Source: a virus | Length of the DNA stretch: 15,517 bases | Strand: one strand, 5' to 3' | IMG/VR virus record: IMGVR_UViG_3300032038_001095 | Shown: piece after piece, positions 434 through 15,517 of the stretch | How positions within the stretch are numbered: the first letter of the stretch is position 1 | How the letters are laid out: each line of letters begins with the position of its first letter | Made by a program: the position numbers and the translations under genes | The notes under the pieces: generated by a model | What the model saw: the letters and a program-made list of their open reading frames with translations, nothing else | What the model was told of the DNA's origin: nothing | Databases searched by the model: none

Positions 434-471
434 ATAGTATTATTCTCCTTTTTATTTAAATATAAAATAAT

Positions 472-544
472 TTGAGATATTAGGATTTGAACCTAAATCT
501 AAATCTATTTAAAGATTTTATGTTTCCTTTTACACCATATCTCA
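472..544 (-). tRNA. tRNA with non-canonical anticodon arm (anticodon undetermined)
   Basis: perfect 7-bp acceptor TGAGATA/TATCTCA, D-stem GTGT/ACAT, canonical T-arm TTAGG-TTCAAAT-CCTAA; anticodon helix AAATCT/AGATTT gives 6-nt or 8-nt loop (UUUAAAUA) instead of 7. Confidence 0.5.
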
Positions 545-556
545 AACAGGTATTAC

Positions 557-1016: not shown

Positions 1017-1089
1017 GGTGACCGATGGGATTTGAACCCACATAAGGCGGATCCACAATCCGCTGCATTACCAAATCTGCCACAGCCAC
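1017..1089 (-). tRNA. tRNA-His (anticodon GUG), no encoded G-1, discriminator C73
   Basis: acceptor GTGGCTG/CGGTCAC, anticodon arm GCGGA-TTGTGGA-TCCGC, T-arm GTGGG-TTCAAAT-CCCAT; base at -1 on the coding strand is T. Confidence 0.85.
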
Positions 1090-2236: not shown

Positions 2237-2308
2237 TAGCTCGCTAGGGAATCGAACCCTAGATTCTAGTTTTAGAGACTAGCGTCTTAACCACTTGACC
2301 ACCGAGCC
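2237..2308 (-). tRNA. amber suppressor tRNA (anticodon CUA, reads UAG)
   Basis: acceptor GGCTCGG/GCGAGCT (6 bp, G7-G66 mispair), D-arm GTCAAGTGGTTAAGAC, anticodon arm CTAGT-CTCTAAA-ACTAG with U33 and A37, T-arm TAGGG-TTCGATT-CCCTA, A73. Confidence 0.85.
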
Positions 2309-7572: not shown

Positions 7573-8121
7573 TTACGGCCACTCTCCAAGTGGTTTACCA
7601 AGTGCTCCATGCTCAATATCTGTATTAAAATAAACAGGAGCATTATAAAATTCTTTATATTCTTCAAAAACATCATTTGCAATTGTTTCATAAAGAGTAC
7701 TTACAATACCATGACAATCATTTAAATTATCATTAAAAAACTGAACTACATAATTCTTAAATACAACATAAGTTGCAGGAATCCAATATGTATCATCTCC
7801 TGGAGTAACTGCATAAGCAAAAGCAGGATTTCCCTCAAATGCAACTTCAAAAAGTTCTTTTGCAGAAGTAAAAGTACGATTTGAAGGAACACCATCAATA
7901 GAAATATTAAGTACAATATTTCCAAAAACTTTTTCTGTTGGAAGTAATTCCATTAAAGCAGCTGTTTTATCTCCATTTCCACAAGCAAGTACAACAGAAG
8001 GTCCATCACTAGTATTGTAATTTACATTAAATGCAATAAGCGGATCGCCATCAAAAAGAGCCTACAATTCATTTACATATGTAATCCACGGGGGTGAAAG
8101 TTTAAGTCTTACATCACTCAT
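7573..8121 (-). CDS. hypothetical protein (182 aa) with one in-frame TAG (codon 20, 8062-8064)
   Basis: AAAGGAG RBS 9 nt before ATG 8121; frame continues through TAG into the 126-aa standard-code ORF 7573-7953; TAA stop. Confidence 0.7.
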
Positions 8122-8996: not shown

Positions 8997-9422
8997 TTAC
9001 TATATTCGATACGTATTAATATATGCTAATCCCCAAGAGGGTATCTAAGAATGGTTATTGACATATATATCTATACATCCTTCTTCTACTCCGCGGTCTT
9101 CGCATGTATAATACCCTAAACCCTCAACATAAAGTACTGTTCCATATGGTATATCTTCTCCACATGCACATGTATGATTAGCTTGCGGCCACGCCCCTGA
9201 TGCAGTTGGAGATCCAGCCCATTCTCCACAACAACAAGAGCCGCCGCAATAAAAGGTAACTCTATATTCTCCTAAATAAATTCTTGTCTATTGATAATTA
9301 AATTTCTACTAAATTAATTGCTATTTGAACTAAAGTGTTTTATCACTGATAGCAAATATATTTGAACATGTTAAAAATATCAGTAGAATCATACTACTGA
9401 TTAATTTTATTATTTTTTTCAT
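8997..9422 (-). CDS. secreted 3D-domain protein (MltA-C/YocH-like cell-wall binding/lytic fold), 141 aa, 7 in-frame TAG codons
   Basis: AAGGAGG 6 nt before ATG 9422; N-terminal signal peptide MKKIIKLISSMILLIFLTCSNIFA; motif VTFYCGGSCCCG...TASG...PYGTVLYVEGLGYYTCEDRG...IDIY; readable only if TAG is sense; TAA stop. Confidence 0.75.
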
Positions 9423-9440
9423 TTATTTCCTCCTTAAAAA

Positions 9441-9514
9441 TAGGGACGAGGGGACTTGAACCCCCAGCCTTTGGTTTATAAGACCACTGCGCTAACCGAT
9501 TGCGCCACGCCCCA
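9441..9514 (-). tRNA. tRNA-Ile (anticodon UAU) with U1-U72 mispair
   Basis: acceptor TGGGGCG/CGTCCCT (6 bp + U-U at 1:72), D GCGC-AATCGGTTA-GCGC, anticodon arm GTGGT-CTTATAA-ACCAA, T-arm GGGGG-TTCAAGT-CCCCT; ends 6 nt before RBS of 3D gene. Confidence 0.75.
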
Positions 9515-9518
9515 GTAT

Positions 9519-9806
9519 TTAACATATAAAATATTTTCGTTTAATAGCTTCCTTATTTATAAAAAGGGTAAATCTGTGGCAATCCGCATAAGATTGCCAC
9601 TCCCATGTAAGGACTCTTTGATTTAAAAATTTAAAATTTATTGCATGGAACTGATTTTTCAAAAGAAGAACATAATCTGTCAAAGATATATTTAACATTC
9701 TTGCGGGATGCCACCAATATGCACTACCGTGCGCTAAATCACTAACATCATTGGTGTACCATTTTCCATTCATTTCCCATTCAGTAAATTTTAAAATATG
9801 CGACAT
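9519..9806 (-). CDS. hypothetical protein (95 aa)
   Basis: ORF, RBS AAAGGAAAA before ATG 9806, TAA stop 4 nt before tRNA-Ile. Confidence 0.6.
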   Translation of the reverse strand: MSHILKFTEWEMNGKWYTNDVSDLAHGSAYWWHPARMLNISLTDYVLLLKNQFHAINFKFLNQRVLTWEWQSYADCHRFTLFINKEAIKRKYFIC

Positions 9807-9817
9807 ATTTTTTCCTT

Positions 9818-10129
9818 TTATAGTCCAAGAGAAGCTAAAAGTTTAGATACGTTATCTTTTTCTTCTTGTGTTGGTTCTAATTCTTCTGTTGCGGGAGTTG
9901 ATACAACATTTGAAATTGGATCATTACTAAAAGCACTAAGTGGTGTAGTGCCGCCTTCACCAAGATTATTTTTTGCAGCCGTTAGAGTAACTTTTATTTC
10001 TACTCTAGTCCCATTTTCATCAAGCGGAATCCGCAATATCTTGTTCTCATCTTCCCAGAAGCTACCAGGGTAAATCTCCATCATTTTTTTAAAAATTAGA
10101 TTTTTAGATTCTGTTCCTTTTGCTGCCAT
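9818..10129 (-). CDS. hypothetical protein (103 aa)
   Basis: ORF; start ATG overlaps upstream stop (TAATG). Confidence 0.6.
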   Translation of the reverse strand: MAAKGTESKNLIFKKMMEIYPGSFWEDENKILRIPLDENGTRVEIKVTLTAAKNNLGEGGTTPLSAFSNDPISNVVSTPATEELEPTQEEKDNVSKLLASLGL

Positions 10130-10344
10130 TATTCATTTACCTCGATATATTCTCTCCAATGTTCTGCAAAATAACTTTTAGTTCGGGTTCTGTCTGATGG
10201 TTCGCCTGTAAAAGGATTGATACTAAAAGTATATCCATGTTTACAAAAGCCCTTTTTTCCAGCTTTCTTCATATTCTGCTTAGCGATAGCTCTTTTCTGT
10301 TCTCTTGTTACAATATAATTTTTTGGAACATTCACTTTTGTCAT
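10129..10344 (-). CDS. hypothetical basic protein (71 aa)
   Basis: ORF; TAGGAG RBS; ATG overlaps TGA of upstream gene (ATGA). Confidence 0.6.
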   Translation of the reverse strand: MTKVNVPKNYIVTREQKRAIAKQNMKKAGKKGFCKHGYTFSINPFTGEPSDRTRTKSYFAEHWREYIEVNE

Positions 10345-11159
10345 TTATTTTTCTCCTAAAATGATATTACTATATTTTGATTTTTTAAAGCATAATGTAA
10401 ATCAATAATACGATCACAAATTTGACAAGCGCCATTAGCATTCTTCATACAACGTTTATCACAACTTACTCTTGATTCTCCAAAACGAGGTATAATATAT
10501 TTATTATCTTCTTCTCCTTCATAACCTACAATTAAATCTTTTAATTTTCCATACCATTGTCTATCTTTAGCATAGACTTGATACAAAGTATTTAATCTTA
10601 CAGGATCATCTATATTGGCATAAAATTCAAAAGTATCAATATAATTTTCATAAACTTCTAAGTCTTCAGGTCTAATAAAAAAAGTTTTTATTGAAGGAGT
10701 TTTTTCCCAAGAAGATTCACATACATTACAATAACTGCGTAAAGATTTATTATTTTTTTTAGCATTAAAACTAAGAATTTTAGCATTAAATGCTAAATCT
10801 TCTCCAATAAAGATGTCTGTTACATTTAATTTTAAAAAACCTTGAAATTTATCCCAGGTGGTAATAATTTCATTATAATAATATGGAAAATTATGTTTAT
10901 TTAAATAATTATCTAATTCATTATTAAAAAATGGCATACAGATAAATAATTTACAATTTGGATACTTTTCTTTTAAAGCATCTAAAATTTCAAAATCATT
11001 ATCTATTATGTTATTTTTAAAAATTAAATTAATTCGATGTGACCCATATTTTTCAATAAAATTATCTAGTTCTTTAATTTTTGGTTTATAGTTAATATTT
11101 AATTGAATATCCTAATTTAAATAATTAAATTTTCTAAAAAATGGAATAGCAAATCCCAT
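10341..11159 (-). CDS. hypothetical Cys-rich protein (272 aa) with two in-frame TAG codons (11112-11114 and 10356-10358)
   Basis: AAAGGAGAAA RBS before ATG 11159; frame reads through TAG at codon 16 into ORF 10356-10937 and through its TAG terminus to TGA at 10341 that overlaps the next ATG; C-terminal CX3CX7CX2C cluster. Confidence 0.65.
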
Positions 11160-13476: not shown

Positions 13477-14280
13477 TTATTCCTCATTTATAAAGATTAA
13501 TTTATCAATATAATTACGATCATCTTTTAAAATTGGCATTTCTTTATCAATAAACCAATGATTATTTTCATCTTTAATACATGCGGAACCCCGTTTTTTT
13601 ACTATAGGTAAATCATTCCAATTGATATTTTTTTCTGTAAGAAGTTTGTTTTGAAGCTGATTACAAGATAATCCTTGTATTTCTTTATGTGAAAAATTAG
13701 CTTGTGCTACCATTTGAATTGAGTTACGTGTTGCATCGAGCTGCCGCCAATAAATAAGATTAGTTACTTCCTCTTTTGGAATGTTAAAACAACGGGCATC
13801 AAACATTGCACCTTTATTAATTGCTCTACAATATGTATCAATATATTTATTATATTTAGTTTCTTTATTGTTATTACCGTCTATAAAAACATCAACTAAA
13901 ATATCATTTAAATTAGCAATAAGACGTTTATTAAAACTCATAGTAGCCATAGATGCGGCAATACTACAAAGTTTTTGTATTTTATAATCAAACCATGCAG
14001 AACTTTCTAATTTTGCATAATCAATAAGAATCAATGTAATTTCATCTGATTGTGTATATCCAAAAACACATCCTTGGATATTTTCACAAAGATATTGCAT
14101 TGTTTCTTGCATAGTTTTAATTAAAATATCATCAAAAGGTTTTTTAAATTCTCTACAAAAGGTATGAAAACTTTTTCCATCAATACGAATAGCAACAGGA
14201 GTTCTACGAGTTAAACGTACATTTGGTATATTTTCATAGTTTTCTTTCATACGTTTTCCAAGATTATCATGAATCGGCAT
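13477..14280 (-). CDS. thg1: Thg1-like protein (tRNA-His guanylyltransferase / 3'-5' nucleotidyltransferase family), 267 aa
   Basis: AAAGGAGAAAAA RBS before ATG 14280 (track ORF starts 5 codons earlier at a TTG); family motifs KRMKENYE...VAIRIDGKSFHTFCREFKKPFDD...GYTQSDE...KIQKLCSIAAS...IYWRQLDA. Confidence 0.8.
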   Translation of the reverse strand: MPIHDNLGKRMKENYENIPNVRLTRRTPVAIRIDGKSFHTFCREFKKPFDDILIKTMQETMQYLCENIQGCVFGYTQSDEITLILIDYAKLESSAWFDYKIQKLCSIAASMATMSFNKRLIANLNDILVDVFIDGNNNKETKYNKYIDTYCRAINKGAMFDARCFNIPKEEVTNLIYWRQLDATRNSIQMVAQANFSHKEIQGLSCNQLQNKLLTEKNINWNDLPIVKKRGSACIKDENNHWFIDKEMPILKDDRNYIDKLIFINEE

Positions 14281-14566: not shown

Positions 14567-15517
14567 TTATTCAGGAATAGATTTAAGAATACCTTCAAGA
14601 GAAGTTCCACGAAGTAACTTATTAACTACTTCAGGTACGCTCTTATCTTGTGCAATAGCAAGAGGTGACATATTAACTGTAACTGTTTCTAACAGATCAG
14701 AATTTGCTTTAGCGGTAAGTGCTGCAATAAGATCTGGACTAATAGATGTTACAATTTCTTTAATTGTTGCTGCATAAGCTTCCTGTTTTGCTTTTTCAAG
14801 ATCTGCCTGCTTTTTCTTATATTCAATAGCTATTTCATTGCTAGCTTTTTCGCGGGCGTTCTTTGCGTCTTCGATTGCGGTTAAAATACTCTGAAGATCA
14901 GATTCTGCCTGTACCTTAGCGGCTTCCGCAGCTCTCTTCTTTTCATTAATTTCATTTTGAGCAAGAATTTTATTCTTTTCAAACTGTGCATCAAGATTAA
15001 GTTGCTGCTGGCGAACCTCATATTCAAGCTGCTGTTCTTTCTGCTGATACTCAGTTAACTGTTTTGTTACTTCAGCTTTTTGTGCTGCTTCTGATAAAGA
15101 TAATGTTTTTTCAACAATATCTGACTGATGAGATTCAAGAATTTTTGCTATGTTAGCCTGGACTTTAACAGCTAAAAGTTCTACATCTTTTACAAGCATA
15201 CCATTTTCAGAAAAGAATCTACCTTTAGGTCTACCTTCTGTAGATGTTTTTTCATTAAGATCGAGCACTACTTTTCTAACGATTTCTGTAGCATTAGTAT
15301 AAAATTCTTCAATAGTATATTTCTGAACTTCCTGTTTTAACAAACTTCTTTCTTTATCACAAAGATGTTTTACATAATTTTCTACGGAAAACCACTTATT
15401 TTTATATTTTTCAAGAAAATCTACATCATAAGATACTTCAAGTTTTACAGATACGAAATCTTTTGTATGAGCTACAATAACGTCAGAAATCTTATTATTT
15501 TCTACTCTTAAAAATGC
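14567..15517 (-). CDS. SPFH/band-7 (flotillin/HflC-like) domain protein, 5' end outside window
   Basis: frame open from window end (no stop in the 58 codons above the track's TTG start) to TAA 14567; SPFH-like segment with VENY motif followed by long Glu/Gln/Lys/Ala coiled coil. Confidence 0.65.
   Translation of the reverse strand, partial: AFLRVENNKISDVIVAHTKDFVSVKLEVSYDVDFLEKYKNKWFSVENYVKHLCDKERSLLKQEVQKYTIEEFYTNATEIVRKVVLDLNEKTSTEGRPKGRFFSENGMLVKDVELLAVKVQANIAKILESHQSDIVEKTLSLSEAAQKAEVTKQLTEYQQKEQQLEYEVRQQQLNLDAQFEKNKILAQNEINEKKRAAEAAKVQAESDLQSILTAIEDAKNAREKASNEIAIEYKKKQADLEKAKQEAYAATIKEIVTSISPDLIAALTAKANSDLLETVTVNMSPLAIAQDKSVPEVVNKLLRGTSLEGILKSIPE

Follow-up and report, generated by a model that had tools for sequence, protein, structure and literature searches.

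The question raised by this locus is how a phage gene that carries seven in-frame TAG codons can give rise to a protein, and what such a protein would do. The gene is located at positions 8997..9422 on the minus strand of a stretch of 15,517 nucleotides from the IMG/VR virus record IMGVR_UViG_3300032038_001095, which is here referred to as the window. A preliminary description, made from the window's letters, had presented the gene as encoding a secreted cell wall protein with a 3D domain and a TAG-packed linker, whose expression would be strictly gated by the availability of a suppressor tRNA. Our analyses confirmed the observations in this description in part, and likewise lent partial support to their interpretation. 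With a probability of roughly 70%, we consider the product of this gene (the 3D gene) to be a suppressor-dependent, exported wall enzyme of the YuiC/MltA type that belongs to a late class of recoded genes and cuts the wall from the outside.

Translation of the minus strand from 9422 to 8997 yields an ATG start codon (9420-9422), 140 further codons and a TAA stop codon (8997-8999), without a single in-frame TAA or TGA. The other two frames of 8997-9422 contain 8 and 7 TAA/TGA codons, and at a TAA/TGA rate of about 5.3% per codon the chance of an open frame at this gene length is about 5e-4. The Shine-Dalgarno (SD) sequence AAGGAGG is found at 9429..9435 (minus strand), 6 nucleotides (nt) 5' of the ATG. 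The assignment of these 141 codons as a coding sequence of the 3D superfamily is based on the translation, the orthologs and the ratio of non-synonymous to synonymous substitution rates (dN/dS). The seven TAGs occupy codons 31, 34, 38, 39, 45, 126 and 141. Five of them are located in the linker (9288..9332, minus strand; TAGs at 9330-9332, 9321-9323, 9309-9311, 9306-9308 and 9288-9290), where the stretch QFKQQLIQQKFNYQQ comprises five TAG and two CAA codons; under uniform placement, finding at least five of seven TAGs inside 15 codons has a p-value of 0.005. Codon 126 (9045..9047, minus strand) lies within the domain in the context HS-TAG-IPSWG, and codon 141 (9000..9002, minus strand) directly precedes the TAA. 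The coordinates, the strand and the total of seven TAGs had thus been given correctly, as had the position of the last one, but the linker holds five TAGs rather than six, and the one at codon 126 had been overlooked. The TAG-TAA ending is common to 8 of 11 non-redundant ortholog sequences and could represent either a C-terminal residue that has been kept or a fossil ancestral TAG terminator with a TAA backup. A scan for promoters and terminators around the 3D gene revealed nothing relevant to the gene above the shuffled background.

Eleven non-redundant orthologs (L001-L004, L006, L007, L178-L180, L183 and L184) were identified via database homologs that were traced to their DNA. The L005 protein is identical to that of L004 and the L185 protein to that of L184, and both were left out of this count. 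In the orthologs, the 3D gene is found just downstream of a tRNA gene and upstream of a gene whose conserved product has about 95 residues. All of the orthologs contain between 3 and 9 in-frame TAGs, at positions that shift from one to the other. Their linkers contain 2-6 TAGs, with at least two 5' of the domain in every case, and further TAGs occur in conserved domain columns (CCG-TAG-W, YV-TAG-GLG and HS-TAG-IPSWG). Over the 84-89 domain codons past the TAG cluster, the comparison of seven orthologs with the window gave dN/dS values of 0.06-0.20, with dS values above 1 and hence saturated. Moreover, no in-frame ATG, GTG or TTG is present beyond codon 11, which means that synthesis of the domain requires TAG to be read; the internal start downstream of the TAG cluster that the preliminary description had considered does not exist. 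Because the syntenic orthologs bear TAGs, the codons downstream show dN/dS values of 0.06-0.20 and an internal start is absent, we conclude that this phage clade uses TAG as a sense codon, and that the 3D gene is a real gene under purifying selection. The proposed dependence on a suppressor is supported by these results and by the presence of a tRNA with a CUA anticodon in the same window (2237-2308).

In-frame TAGs were found in only 3 of the 19 window genes. Besides the 3D gene with its seven, these are a neighbouring gene of 272 codons (10341..11159, minus strand), which belongs to the recoded class with two TAGs here and 2-8 in its orthologs, and a neighbouring gene of 182 codons (7573..8121, minus strand) with one conserved TAG at codon 20. 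The 16 TAG-free genes of the window end in TAA (14) or TGA (2) and never in TAG. The same is true for the TAG-free genes of L001-L006, L053 and L057, the latter two representing the same phage as the window, which overlaps the 48-kb contig ena:ERZ27256903:k141_1055672; as a test of TAG as a terminator, this comparison is circular for TAG-bearing genes. The TAG frequency per codon is 7/141 in the 3D gene versus 3/2604 in the 18 other window genes (Fisher p = 8.6e-8), and the ratio of TAG to CAA/CAG is 7:3 versus 3:72 (p = 2.6e-6). This enrichment over the neighbouring genes recurs in L001, L002, L003 and L006 (p = 1e-5 to 4e-3). The robust point is that the 3D gene constitutes an island of the recoded class within a block of TAG-free genes. 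Among the 17 TAG-bearing genes of the window, L053 and L057 it ranks first, with 5.0 TAGs per 100 codons and a TAG/(TAG+GAR) value of 0.5. The two gene classes were also seen to differ in their glutamine codons. TAG-free genes favour CAG (CAG:CAA ratios of 28:8 in a gene for a protein resembling the major vault protein (MVP), and of 6:0 in the gene for a 299-residue protein), whereas TAG-bearing genes of the window, L001-L006, L053 and L057 use CAA almost exclusively, despite a GC content of about 31% and a strong preference for GAA over GAG everywhere.

To which family does the encoded protein belong? Codons 49-140 (9003..9278, minus strand) specify a double-psi beta-barrel as found in YuiC and MltA, as judged from profile, model and Foldseek comparisons. 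The family comprises 8467 cluster representatives at E≤1e-3, and its profile matched the chains 4WLK and 4WJT of B. subtilis YuiC across the whole domain with an E-value of 1.9e-9. An AlphaFold model based on 22 sequences had a mean predicted local distance difference test score (pLDDT) of 88.8, exceeding 94 for residues 50-140 and amounting to about 62 in the linker. The best Foldseek match was YuiC, with a root-mean-square deviation (rmsd) of 1.8 Å over 88 columns and a probability of 1.0, followed by MltA entries, while the best matches in a viral structure library were phage proteins labelled ‘3D domain’ and ‘lytic transglycosylase’. PF06725 was matched by 11 of the 23 family members (best E 3.9e-20). 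An NCBIfam scan of the 3D-gene product gave nothing significant, a direct sequence search of the PDB with the single protein gave no meaningful match, and the PHROGs matches were three families of unknown function. The catalytic residue of YuiC is D162, which is oriented by T91 and Y93, and its D129, D151 and D162 correspond to D261, D297 and D308 of MltA (PMC4499186). On the basis of these data and the profile alignment, D162 maps to the catalytic Asp118 (9069-9071, minus strand), D151 to Asp109 (9096-9098, minus strand) and T91/Y93 to Thr56 and Tyr58 (9249-9257, minus strand). All four residues are invariant in the family alignment of 23 sequences.

The domain is preceded by a predicted export signal in codons 1-24 (9351..9422, minus strand), composed of an MKK n-region, a hydrophobic core and the potential cleavage site NIFA|ISD. 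The maximum Kyte-Doolittle value over 11 residues is 2.9 (residues 7-17), and a hydrophobic N-terminal segment is present in 22 of the 23 family members. As judged from hydropathy and sequence, the n-, h- and c-regions and an A-x-A-like site are kept in the orthologs. We therefore predict that codons 1-24 encode a signal peptide for the Sec pathway, although they might also specify a signal anchor that is not cleaved. Export and lytic transglycosylase activity are what one would naturally infer from such an SpsC-type layout. A perfect 8-bp inverted repeat (ATCAGTAG...CTACTGAT, 9379-9401) that is located in the part encoding the signal peptide is probably due to chance.

Upon decoding by the host alone, translation would stop at codon 31, and the product would be a 30-residue peptide consisting of the signal peptide plus six residues. 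The full-length pre-protein, with its export signal, short helical linker and YuiC/MltA-type lytic transglycosylase domain, would require seven read-through events by the tRNA(CUA) encoded at 2237-2308, of which six would suffice for a complete barrel. Its yield would thus be expected to scale with approximately the sixth to seventh power of the suppression efficiency. The enzyme would appear only when the suppressor prevails over release factor 1, alongside the other recoded genes of the presumed late class, and after export it would cut glycan strands outside the membrane, such that the wall is either weakened for phage release or remodelled. In other recoded phages, genes for lysis and for structural proteins are the preferred targets of recoding, and in the published model late and lysis genes stay silent until the code switch (bioRxiv 10.1101/2021.08.26.457843). 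The switch in lysis timing that the preliminary description had advanced is therefore plausible, and has in fact already been published as a general model. Seen in this way, the 3D gene would be a clear new example of the published pattern, in which a wall-degrading gene is silenced by in-frame stops until the code is switched. The extreme gate of 7 TAGs in 141 codons, the first of them right after the signal peptide, would moreover make it an easily measured reporter for the onset of suppression.

The residue that TAG specifies will depend on how the suppressor, a tRNA of 72 nt with the anticodon CUA and a Glu-type body (2237..2308, minus strand), is charged by the enzymes of the host. This tRNA was called by ARAGORN, and Rfam as well as the two covariance models mentioned below place it at 2237-2308. 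In the Rfam register it has a G1.U72 pair, A73, a variable loop of 4 nt and the D-arm GGUCAAGUGGUUAAGAC. The 17-mer GGTCAAGYGGTTAAGAC of this D-arm was found at 120 bacterial loci, almost all in Bacillota, and the tRNAs carrying it were tRNA-Glu in 117 of 117 cases; outside the D-arm, whole-tRNA identity contained no isotype signal. Covariance models were built from the tRNA-Glu and tRNA-Gln of Bacillota. The window suppressor scored 74.0 bits on the Glu model and 47.3 bits on the Gln model, which equals on the Glu model the score of the phage's own tRNA-Glu(UUC) (74.1 and 38.3 bits, respectively). Orthologous CUA suppressors are present in L002, L004, L053 and L184, and those of L002 (66.5 versus 39.0 bits), L004 (59.8 versus 40.9) and L184 (68.5 versus 45.1) behaved likewise; altogether, the four clade suppressors scored higher on the Glu model by 19-27 bits. 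Genuine phage tRNA-Gln(UUG) showed the reverse, namely 56.2 versus 80.9 bits in L002 and 51.5 versus 95.6 bits in L184, where the Gln model is ahead by 25-44 bits, and an independently annotated tRNA-Glu of an Enterococcus phage scored 77.6 versus 54.7 bits. Furthermore, the clade suppressors resemble the host tRNA-Glu in having G1.U72 or C1-G72, A73 and a variable loop of 4 nt, and none of them has the U1:A72/G73 that is present in 27 of 34 host tRNA-Gln. ARAGORN drew an acceptor of eight pairs with U1:A72, which we dismissed as an artefact of the register: its drawings of genuine host tRNA-Glu contain this additional T-A pair in 15 of 116 cases. Pyrrolysine, as implied by the ARAGORN label ‘Pyl’, was rejected in view of the canonical 72-nt cloverleaf, the Glu-type D-arm and the 4-nt variable loop; Pfam and PHROGs scans revealed no pyl genes among the window proteins.

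Some further observations concern tRNAs of this kind. In L184, the suppressor tRNA gene (716-790) starts 4 nt past the stop codon of the TAG-bearing 3D gene (401-715), which represents a direct physical coupling of the two. The annotated tRNA-Sup of the cultured Bacteroidota phage pT24 of Tenacibaculum (NC_049383; L181 1494-1567) scored 61.2 bits on the Glu model versus 45.1 bits on the Gln model. In addition, the window encodes a tRNA at 471-545 (minus strand) with an 8-nt anticodon loop (UUUAAAUA), for which ARAGORN reports the anticodon ‘taaa’. It has a Gln-like body with U1:A72 and a GC content of 24%, and is recognised as a tRNA by Rfam with 51.6 bits. The same tRNA is found at L053 6136-6210, and the corresponding slot of L002 is occupied by a normal tRNA-Gln(UUG).

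The proteins themselves offer a second view on the meaning of TAG. In the TAG columns of three ortholog families, E is the majority residue in 8 cases, compared with 3 for D and 1 for Q, and a column test calibrated on true codons favoured E over Q by 4.8 nats. Codetta-like, background-normalised log-odds for nine TAG columns of 155 family representatives were 19.9 for E, 17.9 for K and 14.5 for Q, or 9.9, 7.2 and 6.1, respectively, when one event was counted per column. Column 126 contains 71% E and 4% Q among these representatives, and column 100 contains 41% E and 2% Q. Pairwise odds ratios for the interchange of TAG with Glu or Gln codons were 13.9 and 36.2, both above those of ordinary synonymous pairs, and are ambiguous in this respect. 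Since the body of the suppressor is of the tRNA-Glu type, we infer that TAG is somewhat more likely to be read as Glu than as Gln. By a narrower balance we favour the more specific scenario in which this clade has reassigned TAG to Glu by means of a derivative of a Bacillota-type tRNA-Glu (YUC to CUA) that is charged by the glutamyl-tRNA synthetase (GluRS) of the host. In this scenario the Glu would not be amidated, because the suppressor lacks U1:A72 and the D-loop marks of tRNA-Gln. The Glu-type suppressor is the sole feature of the locus that goes beyond what is described. If TAG indeed means Glu, this would be a code variant unreported for phages or bacteria; the seven residues given as Q in the preliminary description would be E, including a conserved Glu126, and annotation with table 15 would insert a wrong residue at every recoded site. 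Also the capture of a synthetase by the phage, GluRS instead of the glutaminyl-tRNA synthetase (GlnRS), would then be different in hosts whose Gln-tRNA arises by transamidation.

Several of our findings weigh against the picture of a suppressor-gated lysis enzyme, or against parts of it, and these are best considered together with the explanations that they would favour. With respect to the TAG codons, the open reading frame is broken seven times under the standard code, as would be the case in a decaying pseudogene, or if the domain was made from an internal start and the TAGs were true stops. Both possibilities are excluded by the dN/dS values and the lack of a start codon, and since the whole frame is also free of TAA and TGA, a suppressor tRNA is present and TAGs of orthologs reside inside the conserved domain, the probability left for them is negligible. 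A far stronger contender, though one to which we give somewhat less than an even chance, is that TAGs build up passively in genes that are expressed after the onset of suppression, the linker cluster merely resulting from a richness in Glu/Gln-type residues. Indeed, homologs in phages with the standard code have linkers rich in E, Q and K, the TAG positions differ between orthologs, and the 3D gene is not a significant outlier among the 17 TAG-bearing genes (p = 0.07 and 0.10). The first TAG in recoded genes has a mean relative position of 0.33 versus 0.28 expected (permutation p = 0.83); the idea that an early first TAG serves a cheap abort was rejected on this basis. The density of TAGs may simply reflect that a gene is expressed late, without selection for a safety gate. 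However, passive accumulation does not readily account for the two or more TAGs 5' of the domain in every ortholog, for the TAG-free genes around the 3D gene, or for the odds ratio of 14-36 for the persistence of TAG, versus about 1-4 in 12 of 13 synonymous control pairs. The sole synonymous pair with a high value is CAA/CAG (13.6). As for the amino acid, reading of TAG as Gln (‘code 15’) could come about if the tRNA is charged by GlnRS because of its CUA anticodon, or through amidation of the Glu that it carries. Many CUA suppressors are mischarged by the GlnRS of E. coli. TAG to Gln is the sole published phage TAG reassignment, and one such case was validated by mass spectrometry. In our data, Q ranks among the three best-scoring residues of the column tests, TAG and CAA alternate between orthologs at some linker columns, and CAG is depleted in TAG-bearing genes, as synonymous change from CAG to TAG would bring about. 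It should also be noted that the training set of the Glu model was gathered via the D-arm motif of the suppressor itself, and that the margin of E over Q in the protein column tests is a modest 3.8-5.5 nats for a small sample of nine columns. On the other side stand the covariance scores, which separate the four suppressors from phage tRNA-Gln in opposite directions, the lack of tRNA-Gln acceptor marks, the 8 columns with an E majority versus 1 with a Q majority, and the low Q content of columns 126 and 100. Gln, which the preliminary description had assumed, is thus a possible but less probable reading than Glu.

Similar considerations apply to the function of the protein. The match to PF06725 stays below the gathering cut-off of 23.8 bits, both with the whole protein (15.7 bits, E 0.018) and with the isolated domain (16.9 bits, E 0.0076), and the Pfam scan of the window proteins at E≤0.01 did not report it. 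By the Pfam threshold there is thus no 3D-domain hit, and membership of the 3D superfamily is rescued only by the family profile and the fold; the domain that the preliminary description had called clean is not so by HMM. In addition, the first Asp (D129 of YuiC) is replaced by a deletion or by Cys87/Gly88 throughout the close clade, leaving two of three aspartates; this bears on membership, as the three aspartates were reported to be absolutely conserved among 46 Sps domains (PMC1084345). As the variant with ‘AC...’, ‘CEDRG’ and ‘xDxYV’ is shared by gp86 of Bacillus phage vB_BauS_KLEB27-1 and ORF114 of Psychrobacillus phage Perkons, the missing Asp is a trait of a phage subfamily (‘ACG...CEDRG...DIY’) and not a defect. 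Furthermore, the neighbours of the 3D gene are a tRNA-Ile, a soluble protein of 95 residues and a basic protein of 98 residues without a transmembrane segment, and Pfam and PHROGs scans of the window proteins revealed neither a holin nor another lysis gene adjoining it. The protein may therefore not be the endolysin. The same gene with the same dependence on suppression could instead encode a wall-remodelling or signalling factor like Sps or Rpf, which might, for example, keep infected or stationary cells growing or act on neighbouring cells. Consistent with this, the nearest solved relative YuiC is a protein for stationary-phase survival, the architecture is that of the SpsC group, and the homologs in KLEB27-1, Perkons and Faecalibacterium phage FP_Taranis (gp18), which share the hydrophobic N-terminus, the E/Q/K-rich helical linker and the domain, are encoded in modules for replication or nucleotide metabolism. 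Yet the gene belongs to the TAG-bearing class, in which genes for structural proteins and lysis are found in other recoded phages, and a cell wall-binding or regulatory domain is absent. Remodelling and lysis are indistinguishable at the sequence level, and we regard a remodelling factor as the less likely reading, but as a serious rival. The lysis role and strict gating of the preliminary description thus fit the published recoding model, but they find no echo in a nearby lysis cassette or in the genomic setting of the homologs. Its suggestions of a virion-associated or a spore-cortex lytic factor were left without support. Foldseek did match 3D/double-psi beta-barrel domains in baseplate proteins of cyanophage A-1(L) and diffocin, as well as SPO1 gp12.1 in the viral structure library, which would be compatible with a peptidoglycan hydrolase of the tail or baseplate that is used at infection. 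However, these baseplate domains lie inside structural proteins of 580-880 residues, whereas the phage protein has only 141 residues and an N-terminal export signal, and the same scans detected no structural genes adjoining it; a virion-associated enzyme is therefore highly improbable.

Comparison with known systems places the favoured exported wall enzyme in context. The best match by both profile and fold are the YuiC/Sps proteins of Bacillota (4WLK, 4WJT, 4WLI), with which the phage protein shares an SpsC-like signal peptide, a short extension, a minimal MltA-type barrel and the equivalents of the catalytic Asp, D151, T91 and Y93. It differs from them by the substitution of D129 with Cys/Gly, the deletion of two residues between the second and third Asp, and its richness in Cys (YCGGSCCCG, CAC and two further Cys), and also by being phage-encoded, TAG-recoded and below the Pfam 3D threshold. 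With MltA of E. coli (PF06725) it has the double-psi beta-barrel core and the equivalent of the catalytic Asp308 in common, but it lacks the inserted second domain and the lipoprotein anchor, and the identity is 17-18% over about 90 columns. The domain identity is higher, at 36-45%, with the homologs of FP_Taranis, KLEB27-1 and Perkons, the latter two sharing ‘AC..’, ‘CEDRGG’ and ‘H(I/L)D.YV’ and also lacking the first Asp. These three phages use the standard code, and their proteins bear the putative labels ‘3D domain-containing protein’ or ‘lytic transglycosylase’. Endolysins of Gram-positive phages that are exported via Sec before lysis by means of an N-terminal signal peptide, such as Lys44 of Oenococcus phage fOg44, provide a further parallel. 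The present protein belongs to another catalytic family without an adjoining holin gene or a wall-binding domain, and its control would be translational via TAG. With the recoded phages described by Borges et al. (bioRxiv 10.1101/2021.08.26.457843) the phage shares the co-existence of TAG-free and TAG-bearing gene classes in one genome, a tRNA(CUA) encoded by the phage, a gene of muralytic type that ranks among the most heavily recoded, and a predicted Bacillota host with the standard code. Code 15 has been validated in crAss-like phages (PMC9523058), and the phAss-1 group is also recoded (PMC10607447). In contrast to the reported cases, all of which concern TAG to Gln, we found a tRNA-Glu-type suppressor and TAG columns that favour Glu, a recoded gene within a tRNA array among TAG-free genes and without a lysis cassette, and no relative at the nucleotide level in GenBank phages or IMG/VR.

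The window contains 19 genes and 16 tRNA genes, all on the minus strand, at a GC content of about 31%. As an SD-like motif stands in front of 15 out of 18 window genes and the D-arm 17-mer of the suppressor is almost confined to genomes of Bacillota, we take its source to be a phage of Bacillota (Firmicutes), Gram-positive bacteria of a gut type, from a lineage without relatives among GenBank phages or in IMG/VR. A megablast search of the window against GenBank phages yielded only a 54-nt match, a search of IMG/VR with the 3D family yielded only distant homologs that use the standard code, and IMG/VR searches with the neighbouring 299-residue protein and with the suppressor sequence revealed nothing close. 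Scanning of JGI metagenomes added three short contigs carrying orthologs and no other close relative. The tRNA-Ile(UAU) gene (9441..9514, minus strand) is located 18 nt 5' of the ATG of the 3D gene, and this slot is kept in seven loci of relatives (L002-L007 and L057), while L183 has tRNA-Arg(UCU) there.

Lastly, several additional genes of this phage and its relatives were noted. Relatives have insertions of homing-endonuclease-type genes of the GIY-YIG and PDDEXK_5 types, all with in-frame TAGs, in their tRNA/3D region (L004 5015-5374 and 6806-7516, L001 4037-4474, and L056 2147-2854), and the window is without such insertions. In the tRNA array of L002, ARAGORN called a tmRNA-like gene at 9520-9833 with the tag peptide ANYEYRMAA, for which no counterpart was called in the window. 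In the same phage as the window, L053 encodes a reverse transcriptase (RVT_1) of 395 residues with 7 TAGs (14637-15824, minus strand) and a RuvC-like resolvase with 6 TAGs (10194-10679, plus strand). Both genes are located about 8-13 kb past the left end of the window and adjoin a TAG-bearing block of unknown function on the opposite strand. A Thg1-like tRNA-His guanylyltransferase is encoded at 13477-14280 (minus strand; Pfam E 2.9e-30, PHROG 4717 E 3e-85), and the block that contains this gene also includes a phage tRNA-His(GUG) at 1017-1089 (minus strand). The last open reading frame of the window (14567-15517, minus strand) represents the C-terminal part of an 826-residue protein that matches the Pfam family MVP_shoulder with an E-value of 2e-23 and, faintly, Vault_3. 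This MVP-like gene is complete in L057 (7234-9714). On the far side of the tRNA array, directly after it, this phage has a gene for a DUF2828/DUF7788 protein of 498 residues (L053 8351-9847), and together the two look like a vault-protein-like pair next to a large tRNA cluster.

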